Virus record (IMG/VR): IMGVR_UViG_3300005323_000009
Coordinates: 1-48,377 of that record
Direction: 5' to 3' (one strand)
DNA from: a virus
Taxonomy: Duplodnaviria > Caudoviricetes
Length of the DNA stretch: 48,377 nucleotides
Numbering within the stretch: position 1 is the first letter of the stretch; every line of letters begins with the position of its first letter. Shown piece by piece: positions 10,921-39,977 of the stretch. A model generated the notes under the pieces. It was not told where the DNA came from, searched no databases, and saw only the letters and a program-made list of their open reading frames with translations. A program made the translations under genes and the position numbers.

Positions 10921-11436
10921 ATGGCCACTATAGTATGCACTGACTATCGTCGAACAGACACGCAGAGGACCAAGGCCGCTGTTCCCTATTGGCTCAAGAG
11001 TCAGACCGTTGTGGGCTCGGTAGTAGAGGACAGAGGAGCTCTTTGCTTTTCCTTCCCTCGGGTAAAGAACTACCTGATCCTGAATGTGTACTTTCAGGTT
11101 CTTGTAGCCTTTACAACTGGAACCGTTATCGATATTGGTTCTGGTACCATCGCCACTGATGCCGTAACCACAGATGGTAATATCACCATTGTAGATGCTG
11201 ATGAATACATCAAGCAAGGTGATATCACTATCGCAACTCCTGCACGCTACGGCTCAACAACCGGAAATACATCCGATTGGCTCACCGCAGCTATTGCAGG
11301 AAGTTGGGCTGCTCCGTTCCTTCTTACAGGAGCTGCAACCACCGTCCCTGTAGTTTATGCTACCATTGCCAACGCTGGCGATACCATCGTTGCTGGAACT
11401 GGCGTTGTTCACATGCGAATCCTTGAACTTCCCTAA
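10921..11436 (+). CDS. Putative capsid decoration protein, paralogue A
   Basis: Shares DEYIKQGDIT, YGSTTGNxSDWL and AGSWAAPFxxxGAATTVPVVYATI with 11448-11966. Confidence 0.65.
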   Translation: MATIVCTDYRRTDTQRTKAAVPYWLKSQTVVGSVVEDRGALCFSFPRVKNYLILNVYFQVLVAFTTGTVIDIGSGTIATDAVTTDGNITIVDADEYIKQGDITIATPARYGSTTGNTSDWLTAAIAGSWAAPFLLTGAATTVPVVYATIANAGDTIVAGTGVVHMRILELP

Positions 11437-11447: not shown

Positions 11448-11966
11448 ATGGCCACAATCACTGCAATCGATTACCGCAGAAACGATCTTCGGAATCATGT
11501 CTGGCCGAATCCCTATTGGATCTCTTCCGGAGTTATCAACGGAATTGACTCCGAAGACAAAGGTGCTCTTCTTTTTTCTTTCCCTACTGTCAAGCATATC
11601 CTTGTTCAGATGGCTGTCTTCCAGGTAATCACTGCTTTCACTGTCAACACCTTAATTGATGTTGGTACGGGAACCATCGCTACTGACGACATTACCACAG
11701 GTGGTGATATCACCGTCGTAGACTTGGATGAATACATCAAACAAGGCGACATCACCGTCGGCACTGCCGGTTGGTACGGTTCCACAACCGGCAACGCCAG
11801 CGACTGGCTCGTTGCCATGATCGCTGGAAGCTGGGCAGCCCCGTTTAAAATTCTCGGCGCTGCAACCACTGTCCCCGTTGTCTATGCAACCATCTCGAAT
11901 GTTGGAACTATCGCAGCTGGAACGGGCCGTTTCCATATGCTCGTGTACGATGTTCCGGGATTCTAG
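11448..11966 (+). CDS. Putative capsid decoration protein, paralogue B
   Basis: Tandem paralogue of 10921-11436; AAGGAG RBS. Confidence 0.65.
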   Translation: MATITAIDYRRNDLRNHVWPNPYWISSGVINGIDSEDKGALLFSFPTVKHILVQMAVFQVITAFTVNTLIDVGTGTIATDDITTGGDITVVDLDEYIKQGDITVGTAGWYGSTTGNASDWLVAMIAGSWAAPFKILGAATTVPVVYATISNVGTIAAGTGRFHMLVYDVPGF

Positions 11967-12824: not shown

Positions 12825-13750
12825 TGAAAAAGAATACCTTCAAAGACTTCATTGGAATGAATAACGCAGTTGACCCCACCGATCTTTTTTATGATCCGGA
12901 AAAGGGGACAACTGAACTTTCTTATGCTCTCAATGTAGATATCATTCAGCCGAATCGAATCATTCGAAGAAAGGGATTTAATCGACTTATCTCAACTGAG
13001 CTTCCGCATAGCCTCTTTTACTCTCCAGGTCTTCCATACGCTATCTTTGTTCAGGGAGAAAACTTAAATCTTCTTTACCCTAATAACCAGGTAGTGACCA
13101 TTGCATCAACGGATAGAAACAAGCGTCTAAGCTACGTTGAAGTAAATAAAACTGTTTTTCATTGTAATGGTACTAGGAATGGTGTTATTGTAGATGGCGA
13201 AGAACTTCAGTGGAGACGCCCAAATGGAAAAACAAGACCACCTAATTCACCTGGAGAGAGTTTTGCAACTTTTAGTGACCCTCCAGTTGGCACACGCCTT
13301 GATTTCTATAATGGTCGTGTGCTTGTAGCAGTAGATAACACAGTCTACGCTTCTGTTCTTTTTTTCTTCTCTTTCTTTAGCCTTCTTGATTCTCACTCCT
13401 TTGATGGAAGAATTCGTTTTCTTCGCTCTGTGGATAATGGAATCTATGTCGGAACAGCGCAGAAAGTCTACTTCTGCAAAGGAGATACATTTGATTCGCT
13501 TAAGCCGGTAGAGTTAGAAGAGAAGTTCAGTCACCCTGTAATCGGAACCGATCTTGTAATAGATGGTTCTGACTTTAGCCCAGAGGTAAATGGAAAAGCA
13601 ATCCTCTGGACTTCTCACAAAGGAATTTGTCTTGGTGATTCGAATGGGAATACTTCCATGTTGACAGAATATCGTTTTAAAATTCCCAAGGTAACACACG
13701 GTTCTGCTGGCTATTGGGATAACACCTATCATGTAACGCTGTTTTCCTAG
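12824..13750 (+). CDS. Tail nozzle/stabilisation-like protein
   Basis: 'F.GMNN.......ALNVDI....IIRRKG' N-terminus typical of podoviral nozzle proteins; beta-rich. Confidence 0.65.
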   Translation: MKKNTFKDFIGMNNAVDPTDLFYDPEKGTTELSYALNVDIIQPNRIIRRKGFNRLISTELPHSLFYSPGLPYAIFVQGENLNLLYPNNQVVTIASTDRNKRLSYVEVNKTVFHCNGTRNGVIVDGEELQWRRPNGKTRPPNSPGESFATFSDPPVGTRLDFYNGRVLVAVDNTVYASVLFFFSFFSLLDSHSFDGRIRFLRSVDNGIYVGTAQKVYFCKGDTFDSLKPVELEEKFSHPVIGTDLVIDGSDFSPEVNGKAILWTSHKGICLGDSNGNTSMLTEYRFKIPKVTHGSAGYWDNTYHVTLFS

Positions 13751-15363: not shown

Positions 15364-15825
15364 ATGAGCGAACTCACAGTAGTTTATCGAATGAAAAATA
15401 AAGCCATCTCTATGTATAACAACTTTGCATTTGTAAGCTTCTGTGAGTTCGCAGGGAAAGTCCTTGCGGCTGGAGTAGATGGAATCTACGAAGTAGATAC
15501 AGGTGACAATGATGAAGGGAAAGATATTCCTGCGGAAGTAGAATTTGTAACTGACTTTGGTAGTAGTTCGGCTAAGAAACTCAGACAAGTTGATATCTTT
15601 TGCGCTTCGGATGGTTACGTCCGTATTTCTACTTCCTTTGATGGAGACGTTACTGACATTAACCTGATGGCAAAACCATCTATGCTAACTGGAGTTCGAA
15701 AAGTTTCTCTTTATGGAAGTAAAAATTCAAAGGGAGATTTCTGTAAGATAAACTTTGGTAATACAGAAGGACAAGATTTTAGTCTTGACCGTATAGAGAC
15801 TACAGTCGTGGAGACAGGGAAATGA
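15364..15825 (+). CDS. Tail protein (nozzle C-terminal-like)
   Basis: AGGAG RBS; 'TDFGSSSAKKLRQVDI' pattern; synteny. Confidence 0.6.
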   Translation: MSELTVVYRMKNKAISMYNNFAFVSFCEFAGKVLAAGVDGIYEVDTGDNDEGKDIPAEVEFVTDFGSSSAKKLRQVDIFCASDGYVRISTSFDGDVTDINLMAKPSMLTGVRKVSLYGSKNSKGDFCKINFGNTEGQDFSLDRIETTVVETGK

Positions 15826-17237
15826 AATCTAATCGAATTCATAAGGACTTCTGGATTGAAACACCAGGGAAAGAAACGAAGTTATTTACAAAATTTATCT
15901 TAGAAGGTGATACAGATGTAGCTAGTTCCCACGAGCATGACGGAAAACTGTTTACTCAGAGAGCTCGGATGGATAATAGGCAAAACTCTCCTGTATTTCG
16001 AAAAGAAACTGTCTTAAAAGATGGAAGTCGTCTTATTTACCAAGACATCTATGGAAGCGAGACTGTTACAATAACAGGGCAATCGCAGAAAAAGGGAAAA
16101 AGAAGAAGCATAGTTAATCGACATAAATATCTTTTTCCTATTCCAGCTATAGTAGTTGGTAAACCAAATAGTTATAAAACACATGTCTGTATTCCAAGGT
16201 TTACTACTTGGGACAATATGCTTATTATTCTCGAACTAGCAGACATTGAACTAAAAGACACAGTTTATTACACTCATGCAAAAACGCATGGTTTAGATAT
16301 AAAGTTTAAAATCGAAAATCTTGACTTAATTAGTTTGTATGGTTCATATAAAAATGCTGGGGATAGTACACAGGTAAATGAAGAGTCTGTATCGGGTGAA
16401 AGTGGCGAATCACTCCTGTGTGGCTCAATTATATGTGGTGACTCTTATAATCCATGGAGTAGAGGCTATTGGAATTATTTTGGATCACATAATGGATATG
16501 CACAATTAAGAACTCCTAACGGAAGTATGCTGTTTAATAAATCATACTACTATTCGTCAAATCGTACTGGAAGTTCATATTTTATATATTGGTGTGAAAC
16601 ATATCAAGTAAATGGTCCAGTTACCTGAGGTAACGTACACACCTCTGGCTGGTCCAGCGAGGCAAGCGTTACTTCAGGAAGTTTTAGGGAAATTAAGCTC
16701 TGGAAAAGTCGTGAAACTGAGGATAAGAAACACAATATCACATTAGTAGCTGTTCAAGATTGGGTAATTGCAAGGTCGTCAGGTTTTTCATTAAATGTAG
16801 TTATTGACGGTGTGTCTACTTTTACTAGTTATAATCGAGATGAATCAATTTGTACATCTAATCTGTATCTTTGCATAGATGACGAAATGTTTACGTTGTT
16901 AGATACAGCTTCTGGTCCTACAGAAATACCAAATATTACTAAAGCAAATTTCTTTTACGCTCCTGATATGAACATTTATGATTACAATGACGAACCTGTC
17001 TATGTCTATAGCTATAATAATGCTGCTACCAGTACCAAAGAATACGGCATGGTATATAAAAATAAACTGCTTAGGTCCAGAAAATTTCCGATGGAAAATC
17101 CTGATGATCCAGCTAGGTGGATAACTTCAACTCATGTAGTTAACGAAAAAGCAGGTGATATGAAAAGTATTGGATATTGTGCTGCTTATGGGCTTACAAC
17201 TGTTCATGAAACCAGTAAAGAAATAGAGGAGAGTTAA
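15822..17237 (+). CDS. Tail-region protein with one in-frame UGA (codon 269, 16626-16628); 471 aa if read through, candidate selenoprotein
   Basis: ORFs 15822-16628 and 16812-17237 are in the same frame and the 61 intervening codons are open; SECIS-like hairpin at 16624-16678. Confidence 0.7.
16624..16678 (+). promoter_or_regulatory. Candidate bacterial SECIS / stop-readthrough hairpin
   Basis: 12-bp lower stem CCUGAGGUAACG/CGUUACUUCAGG containing the UGA, upper stem CCUC/GAGG, 5' U(G) bulge, GCUG/CAGC closing a GUC loop. Confidence 0.6.
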
Positions 17238-26850: not shown

Positions 26851-28446
26851 ATGAGTGAGATACTCCCCTCCGTTGGCGAGGGGAGTTCTCTTTTTTTATC
26901 TTTTAAAGTTAAGGATAAATACGGAGAACTCTCAATTCCAACGAGCTTGTCGTATTCAGTTTACTGTGCTACAAATAACGTAATCGTTCGAGGAAATACT
27001 GCTATTACTCCTGCTGTTTCCTCTGGGGAAATTCACCTTACGTCAACAGACACAATCATTGTCAATCAAGATAATCCTGTTGAGACTAAAGTAGTTACAA
27101 TAACAGCGCAGTATGGAAGTAGCGATGCTATAAATGTAGAGTTTACGTTCCAGGTTGACAACCTTCATATGATAAACGGAGGAAATATTTTAGTTCTTCC
27201 TCCTGTGGCTACTATAAATGTAAAAGATTACGGTGCTACAGGACTTGGTGTAGCTGATGATTCTGATGCTATCAACCGAGCCACAGCTGCTCTTAGAACG
27301 TATCTCTCTTCTGCTGGGGGTGACGTAGGAGCTAGGCTAATATTTCCGCAAGGAAGATATAAAACTACAAAAGGGCTTGATTTTACAAATCTCAGAGTTC
27401 CTAGTAGAAATTCTTTTTACGTAATTGAGTTTTACGGAGCTACGGTAGTAGGTTCTTGTCCAGGTAAAGCTGCTATGGATTTCACTCGGTCTAATTCTGG
27501 AAGACTAATAAATGTGCATGTTTACGGTGATCCTGCGGCAAGACCATCTATAGGAATACAAGTAGCTCGTGGTAATGATGATGAAACTGCTGCTCAATTT
27601 AATTTTAGCAATGTAAAAACAACAGGAGAATTTACTTTTGCGAGTTTTTATAACCTTGCATCAGAAATGTTTGTTGGACTTGGCTGTTCTTTCTGGAATG
27701 ACCATGAAGATACTACTTCCTTTGGTATGGTACTAGATGGGAGGAATAAGTTTGGAATAAGCTCAGATTACTATCCTATAACAATTCCGATAAATACACA
27801 GCAAAGTTTTAATAGTCAACTTTTTCTACAGTGCGACTTTAGAAAGAGAATCCTTGGTACACCTATTCACATGACAAGTTGTAGGCGTTTAAATATGATT
27901 AACTGCTACGCAGTAGCAAAAGATCATCAAGCTGTTACTTATGACTTTGACGAAAGGATAGGAACGGATTTAAACTTTGATCTGCACGCAGAGTTATCAG
28001 GCGAGTTTCCGTACGTATTTAAATTTATGAGTAGCTTTCCTGGGATTACATCTGGAACTATTAGAGGATTTCATTGGAAAGAGATTAATTCCGGGGCTTC
28101 CTTAGCTTGCTTAACGACAGATGATATTGCCGTTGAATTACTTGATACAGATATATTTATAGGTAACTACAACGCTAATCCTACGTGGGGAGTATTTAGG
28201 CACAGTGATCTTTTTACTGTTAAAGGTAAAATCACTTCTATGACTAATCCGTTACTGTCTAGTGATCTTACGTTTGATGGTACACTGGTAGTGCAGAACA
28301 TGGCTCATTCGGAATTTGTCGTACCAAAAGGTTCTATAGAAATTCTTGACATTACACATAATGCAAGGGTTTTTAAAGGACAGGTGGCGTATCTCGGTGT
28401 TTCAGGAAATTCGTATACTGGGGATGATGTGGCGGGGGTTTTGTAA
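26851..28446 (+). CDS. Tailspike with pectate-lyase-like beta-helix (putative depolymerase)
   Basis: 'INVKDYGATGLGVADDSDAINRA...LIFPQGRYK' motif after a ~110-aa N-terminal attachment domain. Confidence 0.8.
   Translation: MSEILPSVGEGSSLFLSFKVKDKYGELSIPTSLSYSVYCATNNVIVRGNTAITPAVSSGEIHLTSTDTIIVNQDNPVETKVVTITAQYGSSDAINVEFTFQVDNLHMINGGNILVLPPVATINVKDYGATGLGVADDSDAINRATAALRTYLSSAGGDVGARLIFPQGRYKTTKGLDFTNLRVPSRNSFYVIEFYGATVVGSCPGKAAMDFTRSNSGRLINVHVYGDPAARPSIGIQVARGNDDETAAQFNFSNVKTTGEFTFASFYNLASEMFVGLGCSFWNDHEDTTSFGMVLDGRNKFGISSDYYPITIPINTQQSFNSQLFLQCDFRKRILGTPIHMTSCRRLNMINCYAVAKDHQAVTYDFDERIGTDLNFDLHAELSGEFPYVFKFMSSFPGITSGTIRGFHWKEINSGASLACLTTDDIAVELLDTDIFIGNYNANPTWGVFRHSDLFTVKGKITSMTNPLLSSDLTFDGTLVVQNMAHSEFVVPKGSIEILDITHNARVFKGQVAYLGVSGNSYTGDDVAGVL
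26857..26897 (+). terminator. Intrinsic terminator-like hairpin inside the first codons of the tailspike gene
   Basis: ACTCCCCTC-cgttggc-GAGGGGAGT followed by TCTCTTTTTTT. Confidence 0.5.
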
Positions 28447-28463
28447 ATACACATTGTGTATTT
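28445..28463. repeat. 19-bp palindrome copy 8
   Basis: AAATACACATTGTGTATTT overlapping the tailspike TAA. Confidence 0.95.
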
Positions 28464-28467
28464 GATG

Positions 28468-28500
28468 AAAAGGGCGGGGTTCTACCCCCGCCTCTTTCTT
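28468..28500. terminator. Bidirectional terminator where the two arms converge
   Basis: AAAA-GGGCGGGGT-tct-ACCCCCGCC-TCTTTCTT; GC stem with A and T flanks. Confidence 0.7.
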
Positions 28501-28595
28501 TATGGAAGGAGACTCACAGTGATTACACACCCAAGGAAAAGCATTGTGAGTAAGATAGATGTAGCAATACAAGAAGTAGCTTTTTTAGTCAGCAT
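28500..28595 (-). CDS. Possible 31-aa membrane peptide
   Basis: MLTKKATSCIATSILLTMLFLGCVITVSLLP; overlaps the upstream stop and ends at the terminator. Confidence 0.35.
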   Translation of the reverse strand: MLTKKATSCIATSILLTMLFLGCVITVSLLP

Positions 28596-28908
28596 CGTTA
28601 GCCTCGTAAACGTCTGGTTCGTTAAGTTCATCTCGGAGTTTGTCATACGCCAACTGGGCGTAGTGCGCGATTTTAAAAAGATCTCGGAGTCTTTCTTTAT
28701 TTCCTCGAACGGAAGTCCTCCTGCGATTAATGTATTTCTCGATTGCTTTAAAACAATCTTCTGCTGACCAGTCTGTAACTTGATCTTCGCCTTCGCGGTT
28801 GCCGTACTGGACATTTGCATATTCGTTGATATGTCTCCAGACTTTGTTTTGAAATACAGTCCACTGCCCAGTACGAGATGGTACGCGAGCAAAGAGTTTA
28901 TCGGTCAT
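28585..28908 (-). CDS. Hypothetical helical protein, possibly nucleotide-pyrophosphatase-like
   Basis: GGAG RBS; 'AIEKYINR...RDLFKIAHYAQL' resembles small phage DUF3310/dNTP-pyrophosphohydrolase-like proteins (tentative). Confidence 0.5.
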   Translation of the reverse strand: MTDKLFARVPSRTGQWTVFQNKVWRHINEYANVQYGNREGEDQVTDWSAEDCFKAIEKYINRRRTSVRGNKERLRDLFKIAHYAQLAYDKLRDELNEPDVYEANDAD

Positions 28909-28926
28909 CTTTCATCTCCGTTTCAT

Positions 28927-30132
28927 TTACCTTTCGTTAGCTGCCCAGACATACCAAATTCCCTCTTCCCCTGTTGGGGAATAGTACTTTCGAAGAACTG
29001 TCCCACTCCTGATAGCTGTATCTATGCAGTTATCAAACTTCTTTGCGTCTATATCCCTCCAAACCATCTGAAGAAGTTGCTTTTCTGAAATCACTTTGTG
29101 CTGCTGGATTATTCCAAGAAGAAGATCTACATCAGCTGTAACCTCCGAGCGTCCAATAGAAGCGAATGTTTTTCCCATGCGGAGTTCGACTTCTATAAGG
29201 TACTGCATTGCTTCTTCAATATGATGCCAGTGAATTAACATTTCCCCGGATCTTGCAGCTGCGAATATAAGGGCGAGCTTTAGAATAAACATCTGCTTTC
29301 TTGAATACCAGCCATTAAAGGCAGGGTCTCTACAGATTCTTCTCGGATCGCATTCGTCATAGTCGTTGTACCAGTCTATCCATTGCTGCCTGCATTCCGG
29401 GGAAAATTCGTAATTTCCTGAGATTCGTGATATGACTGAGAGGTCGTGGATTAATGCTTCCTTCAATGTCGCACTCGGAGCTTCGGGGATTGCAACCTTT
29501 TTCGTTCGTCCTGTTGCCCATACGAATATAATCCGAGTTGTGAATCCGTTACCTACAGCGGAAGGAGGAAGGGAACTTGCAAGGGAGTCTGGAGTTGTTG
29601 CTCCAAGGATGTTTAAGAAAACAGCAGGAGCTGTATCGCAGCCGCTTTGCTTTGTCTGATATTTCCAAGGAAGTTCTTCACAATCGAATAGGTCTGTTAG
29701 AAGGACGAGCATTTTAGTATTATCTTTCTTCTGCCCGATGAAGGATTCAAATTCTCTCGAAACGATTGAAAGAGAGCTATGTGTGAAGTTAGTTCCATCT
29801 GGCATTGGCTCGACTTCTACAGCATCAGAGATGGCTCTGATAAGAGCTTCCTTTGTTATTGCATCTGCAGAGGTGTGGATTCCAGGAATTTCGTGGATTA
29901 AGCGAGTTCCGTAAGAAATGGCCTGGGTCTTTCTAGAGGCGCCCGGTTCAGCTACTAGGATAATATAGAGATTTGGGTACATTCGAAGGCGTCCATAGCT
30001 AAGCCAGGTCTTCTTTCTTAATGCAGATGCAATGGCAGATACCCCTACCCATTTGTGGAAGATAGGGGCAGATTCTGTATCCTCGGTATATTCGGAGTAG
30101 GCTTCGAGCCAGTTAGGAAGTTTACGGTTCAT
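28927..30132 (-). CDS. DUF3987/YfjI-like P-loop NTPase, putative replicative helicase
   Basis: 'YPNLYIILVAEPGASRKT' P-loop, 'IVSREF', 'LNILGATTP', 'GFTTRIIFV'; C-terminal winged-helix-like region. Confidence 0.75.
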   Translation of the reverse strand: MNRKLPNWLEAYSEYTEDTESAPIFHKWVGVSAIASALRKKTWLSYGRLRMYPNLYIILVAEPGASRKTQAISYGTRLIHEIPGIHTSADAITKEALIRAISDAVEVEPMPDGTNFTHSSLSIVSREFESFIGQKKDNTKMLVLLTDLFDCEELPWKYQTKQSGCDTAPAVFLNILGATTPDSLASSLPPSAVGNGFTTRIIFVWATGRTKKVAIPEAPSATLKEALIHDLSVISRISGNYEFSPECRQQWIDWYNDYDECDPRRICRDPAFNGWYSRKQMFILKLALIFAAARSGEMLIHWHHIEEAMQYLIEVELRMGKTFASIGRSEVTADVDLLLGIIQQHKVISEKQLLQMVWRDIDAKKFDNCIDTAIRSGTVLRKYYSPTGEEGIWYVWAANER

Positions 30133-30156
30133 GAAGTTAGCTCCGAATAAAGGAAA

Positions 30157-31047
30157 CTATTCGTAAAGGTCAATGTCTTCGTTTTGGAGAAAGCTTTCGT
30201 TTACACGAAAAGCAACTTCTCTGATTCTAGGATGTGCTCCTTTTCCATAACGAAGTTTATAGAAGTGCTTCCAGGCGGAGAGTCTGCCGGAAACGATCAT
30301 GTCTGTAGCTATGCAGTGAGGAAGAACATCTCGCGCGATTTCTGGCTTTACATCCACATGAAGGAGCTGTTCGTATCGTGCGAGTGCTTCGTCAACTGCA
30401 TAGCGGAGTGTACTTGACATCTGTGTACCGGAGTCGATTATGATTCGTATTGGGTGATTCATGTAGTTAACATAGCGAGTGCTTTCCTGAGTGAACTGGA
30501 GAGTTCTATGCCGGACGATTTCGTGGGAGATACCGCGATCTACAGTCATTTTAAAAATATAGATAGGTTGATTTCCAGTTTGTTCGTCTTCGACAATAGG
30601 GGTATAGAAGTATTTAAACAAACTGGGCGGGTCCTCGAATATTTCTGGGATGTAGTTGTGAAGTGATTGGGTTATAATGCAGAGAGATGGATTTAGCCAC
30701 TTGTCTATTTCAATGTGGTGTTCGAGCCAGGAGCGCAAGGAACCAGAGAGATAGAGGTTTTGATTAATAACATCGATATGGAAGAAACGTGGCCAGATGT
30801 CTGTTAAAGGGAGGTTAGACTGCCCGTTAAGTTTACCGAGAAGAAGGGTGATGTTGCTATGTTCAAGAACAGAAGTATGACCACGAGAGATAAGAGTTTT
30901 TACAAACTTGAGAGAATTGGAATCTTCTTTTGGTTCGGACTTCCAACAAAGACGACCAAAAGATTCGAGTTGTTTGAGCATGGTGGCTGGGTTAGATGGT
31001 GCTCTTCCGATGTATTCTACATCCTGGTTTATGTATTCAATGTTCAT
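30157..31047 (-). CDS. thyX: FAD-dependent thymidylate synthase
   Basis: 'RGHTSVLEH', 'RGISHEIVRHRTLQFTQESTRY' (RHRx7S) and 'ARDVLP'; start at 31047 overlaps the pol stop (ATGA). Confidence 0.92.
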   Translation of the reverse strand: MNIEYINQDVEYIGRAPSNPATMLKQLESFGRLCWKSEPKEDSNSLKFVKTLISRGHTSVLEHSNITLLLGKLNGQSNLPLTDIWPRFFHIDVINQNLYLSGSLRSWLEHHIEIDKWLNPSLCIITQSLHNYIPEIFEDPPSLFKYFYTPIVEDEQTGNQPIYIFKMTVDRGISHEIVRHRTLQFTQESTRYVNYMNHPIRIIIDSGTQMSSTLRYAVDEALARYEQLLHVDVKPEIARDVLPHCIATDMIVSGRLSAWKHFYKLRYGKGAHPRIREVAFRVNESFLQNEDIDLYE

Positions 31048-33473
31048 AAGGATTCCTTCACGTAGTCTGTATACTCGACCTCTTTCATAGTTCCCCAGGT
31101 TTCTCCGATAGAGAAATCTACATCGATGGTGAATTCTCTTCCGTTTACTTCCAGGGGCATAAGCATACACTCTTTCATGGCTTTCATAACAAAAGGAACT
31201 TCAGAAGGATCGCAGTAGGCATAAACAGCATCATGAAGTTGAAGAAGGAGATCGATTAAATCAGGGTAGTTTTCATACATCTTAACGAGAGCTTTGTTCA
31301 TGAGATCGCCTACAGTGCTCTGGGGAATGTAGCTGTAAGCAGAACGGAATAAATTATCTCCCCAGCGGTCTGTGAATTTATGTTTCCTTCCGAAGAGGTT
31401 ATAGAGGGTTCTTGTTTTTCTGAGTTCGTCTTTAATGCGCTCATGCCAGAGGTGGAGTTGCGGACACTTGAGATGGTAGAGGGTCATAAGGCGCTTTGCT
31501 TCTGCAAGGGGAATGTTTAACTTTGTAGCGAGAACTCCAGGACCCGCACTGTAGTTATTTGCATGACGGATTGTTTTTCCAATTTGGCGTTGTTCTGGAG
31601 TAACCTCCTCGATAGGAAAACAGAACATATCTGCTGCAGTTACTTTATGTACGTCGAGATTATTTTCGCTACGATATTTCTTTGTCTTTCCATAAGACTC
31701 CTCAAAGAGTTCAATCAGCTTTCTATCTTCGATAAGATACGCTACAACAACAGCTTCGGCTTGCATGTAGTCAGGAGAAACAATTACTTTTCCCGGAACT
31801 TCGTAGATTTTCCTGGCTACCTTTGGGACATTCTGGAGATTTCCACTTCCATACGGAAGGATGATAGATGCACTGGAGGACCACCTCCCGAAGGAACGGT
31901 ACTGTTCTTCGTCATCTATGAGAAGTCCCTTGTCTTCTCGAAGCATTGTAGCGCCGGTTATGTTATAGCAGGTGTGGACTGTTCCTTTTGGACTTGGTTC
32001 AACTTCAATGAATTGAGAAAGCTTTGTAAGCTTCTTCCATTCGAGTATAAGGTCAAGTGTAGGGTTGTTGGAGATTCGGGCAAGCTTTTTGAGCGCTTCT
32101 GAGTCTGCTGTCGTTTTCCTTGTTTCATTGACTGATTTCCTCCGTTTGTACTGAGTTGGGAGGTTCATGTCTTCATAGAGGACTTTTTGAAGTTGTTGAC
32201 TGGAGTTTAAGTTTACTTTCTTTCCAAGGGCGGATTCGATTTCACTGTCAAGTTGTTTAATCCTGGGATAGATTCCTTTTGCAATTCCATTGTCGTCTAT
32301 GGAATCGTCGTGAAGAAGTTTCTTTTGTGTCTCTCTGTTAATTGGAATGCCCTGTAGCTGGAGCATGGAAGCGGGTTTAACTTGAGACATTTCAAAATCG
32401 AAAGTAGATTTGATGTTTTGTTTTATCATTTCAGCTTCGAGAGCGTTCCAAATTCCGTAGGTATTTGCAGCGTCACCGACGTTGTAGAGAGTAGGGAATT
32501 GGTTTGAGGTGTGCTTCCATGCGGGAACGTTAAGAAGAATAGAGGCAAGGAAGCCAAGACTTCTTGGATGCTCGGGCCAGACTACATGACCGGCTATGAG
32601 AGTGTCAGCGTAGAAATTCTTTGTAAAGATGTGGAGTTTTTCCCAGAGGACGTTGATGTCATAAAGTCCATTGTGCATTATAGTGTTGCATTTGGAAAGG
32701 ACTCGGGCGACGGAGAGCCAGATTTCCATTTCGTCAGATGTGCTATAGCGTGGGTGTCTTCCGTTAAAGAAGTCGAAAGAAAGAGCGTGATTTGGAGAGT
32801 CAGCAAACCCGATAATGTCTATATGCGTTCCAGGATTTTTGACTTCGATGTCTACTGCAATGGGAGCTTTGTGGTCGTGGAGGAGGAAGAGAAGATAATC
32901 GAGGAATTCTCTTCTGGATGAGGTAGCGTTCAGAGAACGCTTGTCTTGTGGCAATGCAGGTGAAGATGAATTTGCATAACCTTTTCGTAAGTCCATAACA
33001 CACGGAAAGTGTAGTTTCCATTCGTTGTCTACTGCTCCAGGATGGTAGGTGAAAATGCACTTTTGGCCAGGAACAAGGGTAGATTCCATAACGTAACCAC
33101 GGAACTGGGATATGGATGTCTGGCCAGTTAATGCCCAAAGAGCTGTTCTTCCAAGACCGATGACGATGTTAGGACGAAAGAAAAGGATATCCTTTTTAAG
33201 TTGTTCAACGAAGAGCTGCATTTTGTTTGTAGGTCTGGTACACTTCTTGTCTTCGAAGTAGAAGTCAATCCTGTTGCCAGGGGGGCGTTCCCTGGCAACA
33301 TTGGTTATAAGGCAGGCTTCTCGAACGATAGGAGTTTGATAGAGAAGGGAGTCAAGAACTCTACCATCGTGCCCTTTGAAGCACTTTCCAGTAGCTTCTT
33401 CGTCTGCCCCAGGGGCTTCGCCTATGAGAAGGATGCTAGCCGAGGCAGGACCCTCAGTGTGTGTTTGCGCCAT
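31044..33473 (-). CDS. polA: Family A DNA polymerase with N-terminal uracil-DNA glycosylase-like domain and 3'-5' exonuclease
   Basis: UDG family-4 motifs GEAPG and YHP; exo VDIE, HNGLYD, YNVGD; motif A DYMQAE, motif B RQIGKTIRHANNY, motif C QLHDA. Confidence 0.92.
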   Translation of the reverse strand: MAQTHTEGPASASILLIGEAPGADEEATGKCFKGHDGRVLDSLLYQTPIVREACLITNVARERPPGNRIDFYFEDKKCTRPTNKMQLFVEQLKKDILFFRPNIVIGLGRTALWALTGQTSISQFRGYVMESTLVPGQKCIFTYHPGAVDNEWKLHFPCVMDLRKGYANSSSPALPQDKRSLNATSSRREFLDYLLFLLHDHKAPIAVDIEVKNPGTHIDIIGFADSPNHALSFDFFNGRHPRYSTSDEMEIWLSVARVLSKCNTIMHNGLYDINVLWEKLHIFTKNFYADTLIAGHVVWPEHPRSLGFLASILLNVPAWKHTSNQFPTLYNVGDAANTYGIWNALEAEMIKQNIKSTFDFEMSQVKPASMLQLQGIPINRETQKKLLHDDSIDDNGIAKGIYPRIKQLDSEIESALGKKVNLNSSQQLQKVLYEDMNLPTQYKRRKSVNETRKTTADSEALKKLARISNNPTLDLILEWKKLTKLSQFIEVEPSPKGTVHTCYNITGATMLREDKGLLIDDEEQYRSFGRWSSSASIILPYGSGNLQNVPKVARKIYEVPGKVIVSPDYMQAEAVVVAYLIEDRKLIELFEESYGKTKKYRSENNLDVHKVTAADMFCFPIEEVTPEQRQIGKTIRHANNYSAGPGVLATKLNIPLAEAKRLMTLYHLKCPQLHLWHERIKDELRKTRTLYNLFGRKHKFTDRWGDNLFRSAYSYIPQSTVGDLMNKALVKMYENYPDLIDLLLQLHDAVYAYCDPSEVPFVMKAMKECMLMPLEVNGREFTIDVDFSIGETWGTMKEVEYTDYVKESL

Positions 33474-33690
33474 CAGCTTCTCCAAAGGTGGGGATAGGAG
33501 CTTCGAGAGAGTTGAGAAGTCCGCAGGAGGTGCAGATGTAGCCGGCAGGGACCTGGACCATGGTGTGGCTGGACTGACCAGTTACAAGAGGACTTGCATA
33601 GCGGACTTTAAATGCAGGAAGAAAGACATCGCAACCACACTGGCATTTGATAATGGGAAGATTGTTGATGTTCACGCTTAGTTGAGGCAT
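33454..33690 (-). CDS. Zinc-ribbon protein
   Basis: CQCGC...CTSCG; overlaps the pol start. Confidence 0.6.
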   Translation of the reverse strand: MPQLSVNINNLPIIKCQCGCDVFLPAFKVRYASPLVTGQSSHTMVQVPAGYICTSCGLLNSLEAPIPTFGEADGANTH

Positions 33691-33710
33691 GGATTGAGCC
33701 CTTTTTTGGT

Positions 33711-33729
33711 AAATACACAATGTGTATTT
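33711..33729. repeat. 19-bp palindrome copy 9
   Basis: AAATACACAATGTGTATTT, 1 nt beyond the stop of the ParB-MTase gene. Confidence 0.95.
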
Positions 33730-33730
33730 G

Positions 33731-35038
33731 TTAACGGTTTTTTAATTCTTCATACACGAGGGCAATTCGGCTTTGTGCTGTAACAAAAGAAGCATTGTCT
33801 ATTTCAATTCCAGTACAGATTAAGTTTTGTCGAAGACCTGCTTCAATGGAAGAACCGGAACCCATGAATGGGTCGATGAGGGTTTGACCAGGAAAAGAAC
33901 ATCGAGAAAGAAGGTTTGTAAGAAGCTCTACCGGCTTTTCATAGGGGTGCTTTCGTTTAGAGGAGTGGATAGGAGGGCATTCGATCCAGTCGGGTTGTGC
34001 TAGCTTTACAAGAGAAGATTCAGATCTTCTGCAATAGAGGATCATCTCGTAACAGGAAGATGGCCAACAGGACGGGGCAGTACATTGGCCTGTTTCACGT
34101 TTTATCCAGATAATAGGACGGATGTGGGGAAGCCAACCGGCTCTTTTAAAGATGAAGTAGACTGTTCGAATATGTTCTGGAGAAGAGAAGATGTATGCGT
34201 GGGAAGTTGGTTTGGTAAAGCGAAAAGATTCCTTTGCAAGAAGTTTGTAGTAGCGAAAAGCATCCGCCTTTCTGTCAGAAATCATAAATCCAGAGGTATT
34301 AAAAGTTCCGCTTGGAAGTCCTCCGATCTTGTGGCACTGGAGGTCTGCATCAATTCCATAGATCGGGTCGGTTAGGAGGATGTCAAAGGAGGCATCTGGA
34401 ATTGTAGGAAGATATACCTCTGCGTCTGCTTGAATGAGGGAAAAGGTTTTCTTTCCGTCGTCGAGGAGCTTTTGATGTTTCACTGCATCAATTGCAGCAG
34501 TAGCAATACGCTGCATTCCTTTTGCGGCTTTTTGAATTTCAGTAGCTGTCTTGGCTTCTTTGAGGTCAGGGAAGGATTGTACCATTTGATCGATTTGAAG
34601 TTGCTTTTCTACCTGGGCACGGGAAACACCAAGGGCGTTTGCAGTTTCTGTAATCCCCCAACCGTCAGTTATAGAACCCTTCTTTGCCGCACCGTGACGT
34701 TGTTGTTTAAGACGATGATAGTCCGCTACAGCAGCAGCGTAGTCAGCGGGGGTAAAATCCTCCCTAAAACAGTTTGCCTCTATCTCCAGTTCACGAAGTT
34801 CTGCATCGTCTGCAATGTCTTCGAAGGTACATTTAACATCTTTTCCTGCGAGGATGCAGGCGGCTAGGCGACGACCGCCATCTACGAGTTCATAGTTCCG
34901 TGTTACGATAATGGGAAGGATTTGGCGCTTTTCTTTTATACTCTTGGCAAGAGAGCTTACATCACCAAGAGCAGTACGGTAGCGCTTTTGTCCTTCGCGG
35001 ATTTTGATCTTACTGGGATGGACGAAGAAACATTCCAT
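33731..35038 (-). CDS. ParB-like (CTPase + HTH) domain fused to an N6A/N4C DNA methyltransferase
   Basis: ParB 'LAKSIKEKRQILPIIV...LVDGGRRLAA...EIEANCFREDF'; HTH 'WGITETANALGVSRAQV'; MTase 'TDPIY', 'HPYEKP', 'DPFMGSGS' in beta-class order. Confidence 0.88.
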   Translation of the reverse strand: MECFFVHPSKIKIREGQKRYRTALGDVSSLAKSIKEKRQILPIIVTRNYELVDGGRRLAACILAGKDVKCTFEDIADDAELRELEIEANCFREDFTPADYAAAVADYHRLKQQRHGAAKKGSITDGWGITETANALGVSRAQVEKQLQIDQMVQSFPDLKEAKTATEIQKAAKGMQRIATAAIDAVKHQKLLDDGKKTFSLIQADAEVYLPTIPDASFDILLTDPIYGIDADLQCHKIGGLPSGTFNTSGFMISDRKADAFRYYKLLAKESFRFTKPTSHAYIFSSPEHIRTVYFIFKRAGWLPHIRPIIWIKRETGQCTAPSCWPSSCYEMILYCRRSESSLVKLAQPDWIECPPIHSSKRKHPYEKPVELLTNLLSRCSFPGQTLIDPFMGSGSSIEAGLRQNLICTGIEIDNASFVTAQSRIALVYEELKNR

Positions 35039-35046
35039 GAAGTCTC

Positions 35047-35268
35047 CTAAATAAGGCCAAGTTTTCTGAGAAGTTCGCAGGCTTCTGGAGGGAGTTGAAG
35101 AAGATCTTTCTTTTTCGCTTTTGTCTTTGGTTCTTTTATCACCTTCGGGTCAACAACAGCGTTTGTAGTTAATTCTTTATCCCTTTCTTGGAAGTAGGAA
35201 AAGAAGAATGCCTGCTGCTCTGAGGGGGTAAGGTCGAGAACATTGGGATAGAGATCTTCTAGTCGCAT
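35047..35268 (-). CDS. Hypothetical protein
   Basis: Packed ORF in the operon. Confidence 0.6.
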   Translation of the reverse strand: MRLEDLYPNVLDLTPSEQQAFFFSYFQERDKELTTNAVVDPKVIKEPKTKAKKKDLLQLPPEACELLRKLGLI

Positions 35269-35519
35269 ATGGAGGTACTCAAGATTGCTTCGATTTTTGC
35301 AAGTTCTCTCTTGAGCAAGATTTCAGCCATGTTAAGAATCTGCTGAATCTCTTCATCGGAGATTTTTGGTGAGATATCTGAGCGAATACGAAGAGTTATC
35401 TCTCCTTCGAATCCAAGAGTAATGATAGGGATTTCTTCAGTTGTTTGAGCATTAAAACAGTGACATTCAGGACAGCCGCTTTCACAGGATTCTTGTTTTT
35501 GTTCTTCGTCTTTACACAT
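35259..35519 (-). CDS. Hypothetical protein with N-terminal Cys cluster
   Basis: GGAG RBS; CESGCPECHC. Confidence 0.55.
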   Translation of the reverse strand: MCKDEEQKQESCESGCPECHCFNAQTTEEIPIITLGFEGEITLRIRSDISPKISDEEIQQILNMAEILLKRELAKIEAILSTSICD

Positions 35520-35532
35520 AGAAGTCTCCAGG

Positions 35533-35557
35533 AAAAAGGGGCTCTTTCGAGCCCCTT
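35533..35557 (-). terminator. Intrinsic terminator after the SSB-like gene
   Basis: Minus strand AAGGGGCTC-GAAA-GAGCCCCTTTTT. Confidence 0.8.
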
Positions 35558-35581
35558 GTTACGAAATGGTTGCTGATTTAG

Positions 35582-36271
35582 TTAGGCTCTGGTTGTATCC
35601 AGAGTAATGGACTGAACACGATTCCTAGCGTCGCCTTTGTAGACTTCGATGTCTACAGCGACAATGACAGGGATACCGATCCAACGTTGTTCGATGATGG
35701 ACTGGGCGATGGCCTGACGATCCTTGCGGTCTTCGACGGGGATTTTCAAGTTGTCGAAGTCGCGCTTCATAGAGTTAATCTTCCCCTGGTGCTTTGTAAC
35801 GCGGCCGTTGGACTGGAGTTCGTTTTTATCGCCGGGCTTTGGGAGCCACATGCGGTAGTAATCGTGACTACCGTCAACAGCAGTAGTTCCGTCAGACATA
35901 ACAACACCGTTTTCAACGAAGCAGAGTTTGAATGCAATGGAGTACTTACTCGCTTCGTGAGTTACTGCTACGATGTTAGCGCGGTAGTTTCCGCCGGGGA
36001 TTAGAGGAACAGGTTTGAATTCATCTTCGAGGTTGAAGTCTACATTAAGACCAGCATCACTAGAGTCATCTGGGTGATTAGGAACTCCATCACCTTCGGC
36101 TTTGAGAGTTCCGTGCTTTACGTAGTGGTCGAGTTCTTCTTGAGACATAGCGGAAAAGTCGGGTTCGGCTGCTGTGGTTTCGGTAGTTGTCACTTCGGTT
36201 TCAATCTTCTTAGCCATTTTTAAATTCCTTCGTTCTTTGGATTGCTTTAGGAGTTTATTGAAATCAACCAT
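35582..36271 (-). CDS. DUF669-like single-stranded DNA-binding protein
   Basis: 'FKPVPLIPGGNYRANIV' and 'WIGIPVIVAVDIEVYKGDARNRV'; adjacent to the AAA ATPase and nuclease. Confidence 0.65.
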   Translation of the reverse strand: MVDFNKLLKQSKERRNLKMAKKIETEVTTTETTAAEPDFSAMSQEELDHYVKHGTLKAEGDGVPNHPDDSSDAGLNVDFNLEDEFKPVPLIPGGNYRANIVAVTHEASKYSIAFKLCFVENGVVMSDGTTAVDGSHDYYRMWLPKPGDKNELQSNGRVTKHQGKINSMKRDFDNLKIPVEDRKDRQAIAQSIIEQRWIGIPVIVAVDIEVYKGDARNRVQSITLDTTRA

Positions 36272-36289
36272 TTTGTTTTCCTCTGTAGG

Positions 36290-37084
36290 TTATTGTGTCG
36301 TTGTCTCCTTTGCTTTGATGGCGTTCTGTATCTGTTCCATGCGTTTTTTCTGCGCGGAAATAGCGGAACGGTAGGCGGACATAACAGCAGGATAGTTGTT
36401 TGGAAGTTCTGCTGGGAGAAGACTAGCTATACCGGACATGGTAGAACGAGCTTTATACATTCCCATGGGGATGGTGCGAAGGTACCACTCTGTTCCGCCG
36501 CCTTGCTTTGGCTTTGTAAAAGCACAGTAAACTTCTTCGAAATAACCAGGGACGCGAATAGCGAGTTGGCCAGTTAAGAGAGGCTCAATTCCGATGATAG
36601 CGCCAGTCTTTGCATCAGTCTTAATTTCAAGATGAGCGATGACAACGATATTGCAGTTGTATCCAATGAGAGAACGAAATTTCCCTTCCATGAGATTACG
36701 GACCATGCTGTAGTGTACGTTCCAGATAGGACCGTTTGTCTCGGAGCGCTTTGGATCGAGCTGAAGAGAGCGTTCCATTGCGATGTCAGACATGGCAGTG
36801 GTGGAGTCGAGAATGACGGTTTTGTATTTTCCTTCTTCGACGAGTTTGGAAACCTCTCTTTCTTCCTTTTCGTAGAGAACCCAGCCAGCAGGGGAAATTG
36901 GATATTCGGAATAGTCCCATCCCTGGTAACGGCTGTAGGTGGCTATCTTTCTATCGAAGTTGAAGACAAAGCCAGGGGTGGGGAAGGTGGCAGCAAATTC
37001 ACTTTTCCCTGTTCCGAAGTCTCCACAGATGAAGAACTTTCCGCAGGCTTCGTCGATTACGTGGTCGCAGGCGTGTAGGATCAT
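36290..37084 (-). CDS. AAA_24 / Sak4-like ATPase (recombination)
   Basis: Walker A GDFGTGKS, 'TVILDSTT', 'NIVVIAH'. Confidence 0.8.
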   Translation of the reverse strand: MILHACDHVIDEACGKFFICGDFGTGKSEFAATFPTPGFVFNFDRKIATYSRYQGWDYSEYPISPAGWVLYEKEEREVSKLVEEGKYKTVILDSTTAMSDIAMERSLQLDPKRSETNGPIWNVHYSMVRNLMEGKFRSLIGYNCNIVVIAHLEIKTDAKTGAIIGIEPLLTGQLAIRVPGYFEEVYCAFTKPKQGGGTEWYLRTIPMGMYKARSTMSGIASLLPAELPNNYPAVMSAYRSAISAQKKRMEQIQNAIKAKETTTQ

Positions 37085-38091
37085 AGTAAGTTATGCTCTT
37101 TCAGAAGATTCTCTCGACGGAGGTTTCGTTCAAAGGATGCTTGACGAACATCCCAAATAGGGCAGGTTATGAAGTTGTCTCCTAGGATCAAGTTATCTAA
37201 TGGACGTTGCTGTTCACAGAGCATGGAGTAAGAACAAGAACCCCAGTGATGACAGGAGTCTTGCTGCATTGGCCAGACGTTCGTGCGGTATGCGTGTTGG
37301 AGTTCAGAAGCAGTTTTTATTAGGGAGAGGCGCCACTGAGAAATGTCATAGGGAGTGTAGAGTTCTGGAACTCGATAGAAATCGATCTTTGGTGTTCCAT
37401 AGAGTTCAGTCTTTTTACTCTTTGTAGCAGAGAGGTGGTGAATGGAAACAAGGAAGCCGTCTGGAGAAGTTGGAAGGGTTTTAGAAGCAGCGTAGCTATA
37501 GCCGATGAACTGAGGATCACGACGAAGAGTCTTTGTAACAGTGGTAATTGGCTTTCCAGTGGACTTGAAGTCGAGAATCCAGGGGCGACCTCCGAGAAGG
37601 ATTTCGAGATCTATCTGGCCTGTAAAAAGGAAAGGGTTGATACAGAAAGAGGATTCTTCGCGGGTCTCGGGGACGATAGGAATTTCAAAGTAGCGTTCCG
37701 TTGCAAGGACAGTGAGAAAACCTTCGTCAGCTGAGAAAAAGGAGACATAACGCATAAAGGAATCAAGAAGGTTAGAGTGAGTGCGATAGTCTTCGTAGAA
37801 TTCACGGTTTTTTGATTCCTCCTGCCATTCGTAGGTGGAGACAAGGATGGCAGCTTCAATGGCTTTACCGTCTTTAATCCATCCGTTTTTCTGAACGTGG
37901 CTATAGAAAGCGTCCATCATGGCGTGCCAGACGGTTCCGTAGCGAAGGGCAGAGGAACCAAGGCGGGGTTGAAGCCCAAGGATGTGCTGATAGTAGTATT
38001 TTCGAAGGCAGTCAACTGCACAGGAACGGCGAGTGTTATCAATGCGAAGGAGGGAAAGTTCAGATACGGCGGGTTGATCTACTGGATACAT
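37081..38091 (-). CDS. PD-(D/E)xK (RecB/Cas4-like) exonuclease
   Basis: 'CLRKYYY', 'GTVWH', 'GQIDL...ILDFKS', 'QFIGY', C-terminal Cys cluster. Confidence 0.85.
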   Translation of the reverse strand: MYPVDQPAVSELSLLRIDNTRRSCAVDCLRKYYYQHILGLQPRLGSSALRYGTVWHAMMDAFYSHVQKNGWIKDGKAIEAAILVSTYEWQEESKNREFYEDYRTHSNLLDSFMRYVSFFSADEGFLTVLATERYFEIPIVPETREESSFCINPFLFTGQIDLEILLGGRPWILDFKSTGKPITTVTKTLRRDPQFIGYSYAASKTLPTSPDGFLVSIHHLSATKSKKTELYGTPKIDFYRVPELYTPYDISQWRLSLIKTASELQHAYRTNVWPMQQDSCHHWGSCSYSMLCEQQRPLDNLILGDNFITCPIWDVRQASFERNLRRENLLKEHNLL

Positions 38092-38159
38092 GCAAGAAAC
38101 TCCTATGCTTCTTCTAAGCGAATGAGATCATCTATCTCGTTTGGAGTTCTTTTGAGAAG

Positions 38160-38197
38160 AAGACAGCGTAGCCTTGGTTATGCGGCTACGCTGTCTT
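38160..38197. terminator. 14-bp perfect stem-loop (terminator or RNA processing site)
   Basis: AAGACAGCGTAGCC-10 nt-GGCTACGCTGTCTT. Confidence 0.65.
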
Positions 38198-38209
38198 TGG
38201 TTCGGGCGT

Positions 38210-38710
38210 TTACGAAATGCCCGGAATCTTGATATTGAGAGCTTTGAGAAGGACTGCTGCGGCTTCTCTTTCCTCTTCAGAGAGGTTCTTGAAGTTCGTT
38301 GCAACGTCCGCAAGAGAGACCTTGGGAGCGGCGGGCTTGCGGATAACCCATTCGCCTTTCTTGAGAGCTTCCCAGACCTTCTGGACGAAGGCTTCTGCTT
38401 CTACAGGGGATTCGGCAGCAGCTGCGGCATCACCCAGTTTGTGACCAACGCCGAATGGGACGAAGTGCTTGCGGATTTCTTCGGGAAGTTCATCGCAGTC
38501 AAAGACCATGGGGCCAGTCCCATCACGGACGGTGATGATGACTTTGCCGGGCTGGCTGGTTAGGTCCTTTTCAAGCTTCTTCGGGCGCTTCGGAACTGTG
38601 GGAACAACGACGTTTTCAGCTTCAACGAGTTCAACAGGCATTTCCATTACTTCAGGCATTTCGCTCATTGTAACATCTCCGGGTTCGAGTTCTTTCTTTT
38701 TACGAGGCAT
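38210..38710 (-). CDS. Hypothetical protein, paralogue of 47210-47845
   Basis: Start MPRKKKE at 38710; 'GVGHKLGDAAA...VWEALKKGEW'. Confidence 0.7.
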   Translation of the reverse strand: MPRKKKELEPGDVTMSEMPEVMEMPVELVEAENVVVPTVPKRPKKLEKDLTSQPGKVIITVRDGTGPMVFDCDELPEEIRKHFVPFGVGHKLGDAAAAAESPVEAEAFVQKVWEALKKGEWVIRKPAAPKVSLADVATNFKNLSEEEREAAAVLLKALNIKIPGIS

Positions 38711-38713
38711 CTT

Positions 38714-38747
38714 CTTTGTGTCCTTTGTGTCCTTTGTGTCCTTTGTG
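38714..38747. repeat. Tandem 9-bp repeat CTTTGTGTC x3.8 over the RBS region
   Basis: Minus strand reads (ACAAAGGAC)n directly upstream of ATG 38710. Confidence 0.85.
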
Positions 38748-38835
38748 AATGACTGTTTTGTTCTCTTTCGGTGATTGTGTTTATGACATGGTTGTGATGG
38801 AACGTCAATGGAAATTTTTCCAGTAGAAAACGGGC

Positions 38836-38854
38836 AAATACACATTGTGTATTT
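38836..38854. repeat. 19-bp palindrome copy 10
   Basis: AAATACACATTGTGTATTT overlapping the stop of 38853-39236. Confidence 0.95.
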
Positions 38855-39236
38855 AATCGGGTTGTGGTTTGAATTCAATCCTCCTTTCTCTGAAGAGATC
38901 GTATGGGAGAAGGTAAGTAATGGGGATGGAAAGGGAAAGGGCTAAAGTCAGCTCTTCCATAACTCCGATGGAGTCAGACCAGTCTTCGAGGCAGAGTACA
39001 GTAAACATATCGCAACGTTTGAGGATGTTGCTGCAATAAGGTTTCCAAAAGTCCCAAGAAAAGGGAAGATTGCAAACCTGGGAGACATCGTGGCAGTGGA
39101 TGACAGGGGAAATGACATGGTAGCCGTAGTGGAAGAGGAAGCCAACTGCGTCACGAACGAGGGAGTAGCCCCAGCAGGAAATGCGGTTGTCAGGGTGGCT
39201 GTAGGGAGAAGCGAGGTAGATAAGGCTGTTAGTCAT
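38853..39236 (-). CDS. DUF1937-like / nucleoside 2-deoxyribosyltransferase-fold protein
   Basis: 'IYLASPYSH', 'SPVIHCH', 'WDFW', 'RCD', 'WSDSIGVMEE'; GGAG RBS. Confidence 0.75.
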   Translation of the reverse strand: MTNSLIYLASPYSHPDNRISCWGYSLVRDAVGFLFHYGYHVISPVIHCHDVSQVCNLPFSWDFWKPYCSNILKRCDMFTVLCLEDWSDSIGVMEELTLALSLSIPITYLLPYDLFRERRIEFKPQPD

Positions 39237-39414
39237 AGATGTCTCCGTCTTCGTCTTCGATGAGGAGGTTTTCGAGTTTGCCTTGGGCAATACCAAAAGT
39301 GTAAAAGGGGCCTTCGTAAATGCCTTTCCAGACGAAGTAGAATCCTGGAACAAGGCCAAGGCAGTTATTCTTTTTTACTTCGAATGGACGCGGGGTGAAT
39401 GGTCTTGTTGACAT
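39229..39414 (-). CDS. Hypothetical protein
   Basis: GAGG RBS; packed ORF. Confidence 0.55.
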   Translation of the reverse strand: MSTRPFTPRPFEVKKNNCLGLVPGFYFVWKGIYEGPFYTFGIAQGKLENLLIEDEDGDIYD

Positions 39415-39418
39415 AGGA

Positions 39419-39799
39419 CTACCTCATCTGTTTAAAAGTTTCGCTCATAGCGTTCATGGATTTCTGACACCAGAGAAGTTTAGCCCTGGCGTTTGTGGCT
39501 GTCTCTATAACAAAGCCGAGTTCTTCGATGAGAGTTTCAAAGTTTGGAAGGTCAGAGCCGCAAATGGCTGGAGTGGCTTGAGTAGGTAGGTAGTAGACAA
39601 CTTGATTGGTACCTGAAAAGGCTTTAATTAACTTCCCTTCCTGGGAAAGGCGATTCATTTCTGAGATGATAGTAGAACGTAACCAAATACATGCGCTGGC
39701 TCGTTCGATGTCATCAATGGTGTATTCCTGTCCTTCCTTTAGAAAAGAAAGGAGCCATGTCTGAAAGCCTCTTTTTCTAGGGTTTGAACTTTCGCTCAT
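39419..39799 (-). CDS. Hypothetical protein, winged-helix-like
   Basis: 'YTIDDIERA...STIISEMNRLSQEGKLIK'. Confidence 0.55.
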   Translation of the reverse strand: MSESSNPRKRGFQTWLLSFLKEGQEYTIDDIERASACIWLRSTIISEMNRLSQEGKLIKAFSGTNQVVYYLPTQATPAICGSDLPNFETLIEELGFVIETATNARAKLLWCQKSMNAMSETFKQMR

Positions 39800-39803
39800 G
39801 ACT

Positions 39804-39977
39804 TTAGTCCTCTGTGGTGTCTTTAAGTGTTTCGATGAAGTGGTTATAAGCAAGGTGGAGGTCACTGGAATCTAAATAAGGGCCGTGGGGATGGTTGTTG
39901 TAGTCGTAGTAATACCACCCAGGTGAAAGGCCTGCTTTACTGCAGGCAGTGCAGTTTGGAACGTAAAATATTCTCAT
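39804..39977 (-). CDS. 57-aa hypothetical protein (not in the ORF track)
   Basis: AAGGAG RBS; MRIFYVPNCTACSKAGLSPGWYYY... Confidence 0.55.
   Translation of the reverse strand: MRIFYVPNCTACSKAGLSPGWYYYDYNNHPHGPYLDSSDLHLAYNHFIETLKDTTED

Follow-up and report, generated by a model that had tools for sequence, protein, structure and literature searches.

A virion-module gene interrupted by a single TGA codon

We analyzed a complete virus record of 48,377 bases bounded by direct terminal repeats (hereafter, the window). It encodes a terminase, a portal, a major head protein, an SU10-type adaptor, a head-closure protein and a tailspike-like protein, along with a DNA polymerase, a primase and a ligase for replication; no tRNA genes were found. 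The gene considered here is located after the adaptor and closure genes and before three genes whose order is kept in relatives. From gene order, we infer a short-tailed phage and a tail-tip role for the gene product. The label 'tail protein' in the first-pass annotation thus has a positional basis: the 471-codon protein had no family or fold match in PHROG, Pfam, NCBIfam or PDB, its structure model (pLDDT 38.9 overall) is confident only for residues 1-90, the fold search gave a best Z of 5.6, and all Atlas matches were below 0.9.

Elsewhere in the window, two tandem paralogues (10921-11436 and 11448-11966) lie behind the capsid gene and share approximately 72% DNA identity over 300 bases; the related phage G001 carries a single copy in this place. 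A palindromic motif, AAATACACATTGTGTATTTG, is found at 48147-48188 and 28445-28475, the two ends of two transcription blocks, and is possibly a regulator site.

The gene of interest (15822..17237; this and all features below are on the plus strand) is a virion-module gene of no named family. Its ATG at 15822 overlaps the stop codon of the upstream gene as ATGA and is preceded by a Shine-Dalgarno (SD) sequence, GGAG, at 15810..15813 (anti-SD pairing of -6.4 kcal/mol). As first proposed, 15822-17237 is one frame of 471 codons, counting UGA as a residue, with a sole internal stop, the TGA at 16626-16628 (codon 269, the candidate selenocysteine). The 61 codons that follow (16629..16811) are all open, for which the chance is about 0.7% from local composition, and are coding-like, with a codon score of +0.11 in frame and -0.64 and -0.79 in the other frames. 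The conserved C-terminal region (16812..17237), recognized from the C-termini of relatives, is called as a separate ORF starting at a GTG that indeed has no ribosome-binding site: its SD pairing is +0.7 kcal/mol, compared with -4 to -12 in most well-supported genes, and the nearest downstream start with SD pairing lies 178 codons past the TGA. The gene has been deposited as separate proteins of 268 and 116/141 aa.

TGA terminates 13 of the 62 listed ORFs, several of them as ATGA overlaps; most TGA-ended ORFs have short open run-ons or are such overlaps, and the long genes are open under table 11. The codon is not sense-only in this genome, which speaks against a genome-wide reassignment of UGA (codes 4 and 25), in agreement with the first-pass annotation. 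Because TGA is an ordinary stop elsewhere, UGA at codon 269 is a single-site event.

The TGA was confirmed in assembled contigs rather than raw reads: it is present at 100% identity in L002 and in L068, the latter being the likely source, in one Logan contig with a depth of 20.7, which is a possible source, and in a strain variant (L003/L069) with 15 differences in 4.7 kb. Because a common source is possible for the window, L002, L068 and run X1, we count two haplotypes in total; in runs X2 and X3 the sequence does not reach the TGA. A groundwater metagenome run gave the best match to the phage and may be its source, and there was no RNA run among those listed with phage sequence. A third haplotype, L004, shows four clustered differences from the window at 13692-13698, near the end of the head-closure gene.

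Between the two strains, a patch covering codons 178-236 (16354..16529) is hypervariable, with 11 SNPs in 10 codons, every one of them changing the amino acid, within surrounding DNA that is near-identical. The chance of all 10 codons being non-synonymous is about 0.08 under neutrality, and six of the changes recur in run X2. This pattern hints at a region of host contact that is either under diversifying selection or has acquired a patch by recombination. A search for a diversity-generating retroelement target gave no repeat of 16341-16640 above 33/60 matches; the changes are not A-specific, and no reverse transcriptase was present among the scanned ORFs of the window.

Relatives encode the gene as one open reading frame

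Relatives were gathered via the capsid protein (58 loci) and via a neighbour gene. The N-terminal domain (15822..16106, approximately residues 1-95) is common to the whole family, with HMM matches in 32 rows, and is the only confident part of the structure model (pLDDT 67-84). The profile of this domain, applied to loci from L009 onward, gave 26 non-self rows. In 20 of these, one a duplicate, the gene is a complete single ORF, measuring 347-807 aa when counted from the start of the domain; 5 run off the contig and 1 (L053) is broken. Furthermore, a profile built from 8 single-ORF relatives, with the window excluded, and scored on 603 window segments ranked the two halves of the gene first and second, with E values of 1.5e-6 and 2.2e-6, the next segment being at 0.25. 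Pairwise, L046 matched both halves (E of 1e-8 and 3e-5), and the C-terminus of P0005 matched the 16812..17237 region (E of 7e-9).

A partial protein of 182 aa, P0004, is 66% identical to residues 293-471. It retains codons 293-330 of the linker but lacks a Val where the GTG would be; its C-terminal half, although diverged to 66%, is still open and ends at the same residue. By sequence comparison, relatives encode the gene as one ORF and the linker is coding, and the concern that the halves might be separate genes in relatives was not borne out.

The break in L053 is a TGA at 5615-5617 of the homologous gene. We rejected it as support for recoding: its twin L054, 99.93% identical, has GGA, and there is no SECIS-like hairpin. 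It is probably an error or a nonsense allele; a TGA without the hairpin indicates that stray stops do occur in the family.

With phmmer, the whole protein library yielded 4 matches, and word-index searches yielded 1, 4 and 5 proteins; in those protein searches, no homologue had an identity in the range from about 33% to 64%. When viral and metagenome sequences were scanned with the protein, nothing but the same phage was recovered, no further loci were found for P0005 and L059, and L006 and L007 were discarded as false matches.

The TGA lies within an exceptionally strong hairpin

Folding of the region reproduced all elements described earlier. The hairpin (16624..16678) consists of a 12-bp lower stem (16624-35/16667-78) that holds the UGA, an internal loop and an upper stem-loop. 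The latter is SECIS-like by the model of PMC13188914 and spans 16642..16662, with CCUC/GAGG, a bulge U16646-G16647, GCUG/CAGC and the loop G16652-U-C, whose G is the 24th base past the UGA. The hairpin is both the minimum free energy (MFE) and the centroid structure (-28.3 kcal/mol, z of -2.9, 0/200 shuffles as strong); none of 2000 synonymous shuffles reached the observed -28.2 kcal/mol, the mean being -12.7 +/- 3.0. It ranks second in strength among 7747 windows of the genome and first among 62 gene ends, and the segment has 56% G+C within a gene of 35%. Since the haplotypes do not differ over the first 532 bases of the gene either, the identity of the hairpin in every copy found is no sign of special conservation.

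The element had no Rfam match at E <= 10, and no terminator-like site was detected at the hairpin. Elsewhere, the element was found only in the same phage, the other match to the pattern being one unrelated, out-of-frame sequence; the idea of a mobile unit was rejected on these grounds. An inversion between the stem arms was also set aside as, judging from the sequence, it would keep a TGA. Other strong hairpins of the genome are located in coding regions near 4447 (about -30 kcal/mol) and 2383 (about -28 kcal/mol), also on the plus strand and with no stop involved. In two genes that could be aligned, such hairpins were not insertions; for the one near 2383, this was seen by comparison with the G001 phage.

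A second, local hairpin of 6 bp (16620..16634), whose loop contains the UGA, competes with the long stem, as the six bases on either side of the UGA are complementary; palindromes of this kind are found at 53 of 46470 positions. In addition, an 8-nt direct repeat is present at 16613-16620 and 16650-16657, and an alternative fold (-18 kcal/mol) engages the SECIS loop as long as the 3' arm has yet to be transcribed, which may amount to a folding switch.

Comparison with bacterial SECIS elements

Known selenoproteins are mostly redox enzymes. In the E. coli genes fdhF and fdnG, as in the phage gene, an in-frame UGA precedes a stem-loop whose apical loop contains G-U; when folded, fdnG shares the GUC loop with the phage hairpin and likewise has an unpaired U at -6 from the loop G. 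The accessible text of PMC8659212 names U17, G23 and U24 as the SelB determinants and gives an E. coli UGA-SECIS spacing of 11 nt; the E. coli loop is 4 nt nearer to the UGA than that of the phage hairpin. Compared with bacterial selenoprotein genes, the phage gene has a 2-nt bulge and a far stronger lower stem holding the UGA, and its protein is a virion-module protein rather than a redox enzyme, with no firm Sec/Cys pair.

The bacterial SECIS model, as given in the accessible part of PMC13188914, calls for a loop of 3-9 nt, an upper stem of 4-16 bp, a G at loop position 1 or 2 with G or U next to it on the 3' side, a UGA-to-loop distance of 16-37 nt and an MFE <= -7.5. Measured against that description, the phage hairpin, with its 3-nt loop, 8-bp upper stem, G-U-C loop closed by G-C, UGA-to-loop distance of 23 nt and free energies of -8.3 (upper hairpin) and -22.0 (from the UGA), agrees with the model on all four of its criteria; moreover, the in-frame UGA stands in a gene that is continuous among relatives, as the SECIS class requires.

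The basic model alone, in our version, is permissive, passing 1521 of 11378 phage codons (13%). Adding the G-U loop leaves 348 codons, and requiring in addition an unpaired U at -6 from the G leaves 15, among them neighbours of the hairpin itself. A G-U loop combined with an MFE <= -22 singles out the hairpin at codon 269 plus one other site.

As a natural comparison, we used 44 Sec sites from Bacillota genomes (SelD, GrdB-type and formate dehydrogenase genes; 3 of 47 loci lacked a Sec motif). Of the 44, 37 passed the test, and the usual positions of the loop G were +19 and +34. The phage loop at +24 is inside the natural range of +18 to +34, yet none of the 44 natural sites has it at +24, and none of those that passed carries the unpaired U at -6. 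Natural stems average -14, the strongest reaching -22, equal to the -22 of the window; none of the 44 pairs its UGA as strongly. The Thr-UGA-Gly context and the next bases (16626-16640) are similar to the Sec site found in host genes of the GrdB type (L124-L153), probably by chance.

Codon 269 is located in a variable loop

Codon 269 falls in a loop between two loosely conserved tryptophans, which are separated by 16, 16, 17, 23 and 30 residues in relatives and by 38 in the window. Its candidate partner is Cys258 (16593..16595), giving C-x10-U; a C-x10-C stands weakly in register in L059. This relative (17% identity) is the only one of five aligned full-length relatives with a Cys partner at the column, in a region that is poorly alignable. 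Moreover, the register appears when C is substituted for U; with X, the local z is 1.2 and 35 of 300 shuffles are as good, and a global alignment with X does not place the L059 Cys opposite residue 269. No TGA was found at this column in an independent lineage among the family rows, and when the loci were scanned for further breaks combining a TGA with a hairpin, none was convincing. The homologue alignment suggested at the outset gave no fixed residue in the variable loop and a Cys in 1/5; TGA was confined to the two haplotypes. With its seven Cys and residue 269, the protein has an even number, eight, enough for four possible bridges; the number of Cys per protein in the family is 2-23.

Searches bearing on the host

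The only genome bin with a member of the clade is a Bacillota MAG that carries selB, selD and two UGA-bearing formate dehydrogenases. The contig in question (G001:C102, L091-L093) is a 47.4-kb phage fully syntenic with the window; it is not flanked by host sequence, and the gene lacks the TGA there. A search of 399 genomes of one class for spacer-like matches to 28500-48377 returned only AT-rich chance matches, and no cultured phage above 34% capsid identity was found.

Proposed decoding of the UGA as selenocysteine

Given that the UGA lies inside a SECIS-shaped hairpin, the host likely inserts selenocysteine at codon 269. From the sequence, we consider it somewhat probable that host SelB and tRNA(Sec) read the UGA as selenocysteine, probably within a Cys258-Sec269 loop. 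In the original proposal to this effect, the single gene, the coding linker, the lack of a second start, the SECIS-like hairpin and the unchanged code have all stood, whereas neither a conserved TGA nor a solid Cys partner emerged from the independent relatives, which align poorly at this column.

A ribosome arriving at the UGA would melt the lower stem, and the upper stem-loop, which starts 14 bases downstream of the UGA, would stay outside the ribosome, where SelB could bind it through the G-U loop and the bulged U. Having no tRNA of its own, the phage would depend wholly on a selenocysteine-using host. Sec269 would then close a surface loop, Cys258-x10-Sec269, within the variable region of a protein at the tail-tip position, a region that probably contacts the host, and failed insertion would give a 268-aa product lacking the conserved C-terminal region. 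Regulation by selenium, or the making of two isoforms, is speculation. A SECIS function leaves unexplained the extra palindrome around the UGA and the repeated GUU-ACY. We tentatively propose, as a real possibility, a structural virion protein that carries its own SECIS in a variable loop, in which an Se-S bridge would replace the disulfides of relatives and tie maturation to a Sec-competent, selenium-supplied host.

Alternative explanations

The UGA might instead be a real stop, either in a split gene with re-initiation or as a locally fixed nonsense allele, the hairpin having another job such as RNA processing or pausing. TGA is a normal stop in this genome, a single phage population is known to carry it here, and L053 shows that such stops arise in the family. 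Re-initiation, however, would have no SD-led start for 178 codons, and the GTG is not kept in P0004 although the linker is. Also against a real stop, the C-terminal half of P0004 has stayed open at 66% identity and has the same end residue, and the genome is complete with terminal repeats. In a variant of this explanation, the hairpin marks a palindromic insertion that is lost by slippage between 11-nt near-repeats; against it, no slippage joint was seen in contigs, which show presence only. Taken together with its variant, we regard a real stop as unlikely.

The long product of phage Q-beta is a virion protein and is read by a near-cognate tRNA. Readthrough of this kind, whether programmed or leaky, could also involve a suppressor, the inserted residue being Trp, Cys or another; with help from the hairpin, it would make only the ratio of the 471-aa to the 268-aa product matter. 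Such readthrough needs only a continuous frame and a low yield, it would suit a site in a variable loop with no fixed residue among relatives, and the stop of the Q-beta coat gene, as described in the accessible text of PMC8310308, is a precedent. Nevertheless, it leaves unexplained the G-U loop with the unpaired U at -6, found at 15 of 11378 codons, and a suppressor is not to be found in the phage, which has no tRNA. Readthrough without selenocysteine comes next in plausibility and is likewise unlikely.

Translational bypassing, which the first-pass annotation did not consider, has some of its features at this site. In a hop of the type described for phage T4 gene 60 (10.1101/2022.08.31.505936), the peptidyl-tRNA(Thr) would leave ACC, slide 48 nt and land on ACU (16671-73), yielding 455 aa without residues 269-284; the possible landing site is the GUU ACU at 16668..16673, a repeat of the GUU ACC before the UGA. 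In accessible descriptions of gene 60 and its homologues, the take-off codon lies in the 5' stem arm, with a stop next to it and a wobble-matched codon approximately 50 nt further on. The same holds here: ACC and ACU are wobble-matched and both preceded by GUU, the stop is right behind the take-off codon, which lies in the 5' stem arm (16624-35), and a GAGG is located 8 nt before the landing site. In addition, the hop would shrink the 38-residue loop to 22, within the 16-30 of relatives, and would remove a segment that at 56% G+C stands out from the 35% of the gene. However, compared with gene 60 as described there, the phage site has no UUCG or GNRA cap beside the stop, its tip being a GUC triloop 24 nt away; there is no AU-rich landing zone; the mini-SD GAGG is taken up in stem pairing and does not fall within the 5-7 nt range; the gap keeps the reading frame, is open and resembles coding sequence; and no adjacent homing endonuclease was found. 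The element is found only in the same phage, and the family is rich in indels. We give bypassing only an outside chance.

Finally, a sequencing or assembly error at the TGA is very improbable: although the evidence comes from contigs and the window, L002, L068 and X1 may have one source, the TGA is also present in the second haplotype, with its 15 differences over 4.7 kb, the contig depth is 20.7, and an error would not be expected to fall inside the second strongest hairpin of the genome.

Implications for phage biology

The viral selenoproteins described in the accessible text of PMC8310308 are the glutathione peroxidases of poxviruses, which use the host Sec machinery, the SECIS of fowlpox virus also being located in the coding sequence; these are captured host enzymes with a eukaryotic SECIS, whereas here the protein is phage-specific and the signal of bacterial type. 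According to the same text, phage Q-beta, an RNA phage, also obtains a short and a long product from a UGA. In the code 15 crAss-like phages, as far as the accessible part of PMC9523058 describes them, a stop is read as sense in phage genes throughout the genome; here a single site is concerned and there is no suppressor tRNA. No phage-encoded selenoprotein was found in the literature searched, which included subscription papers only thinly; the nearest item in the accessible texts is a predicted phage tRNA(Sec) (PMC6145125), and the words 'phage' and 'virus' are absent from the available text of PMC13188914.

A structural phage selenoprotein, if true, would mean that phages plug into host recoding. 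It would provide a sequence marker for host range, pointing to Sec-using bacteria, and would imply that gene callers split such genes. The 60-nt cassette is a directly testable element.
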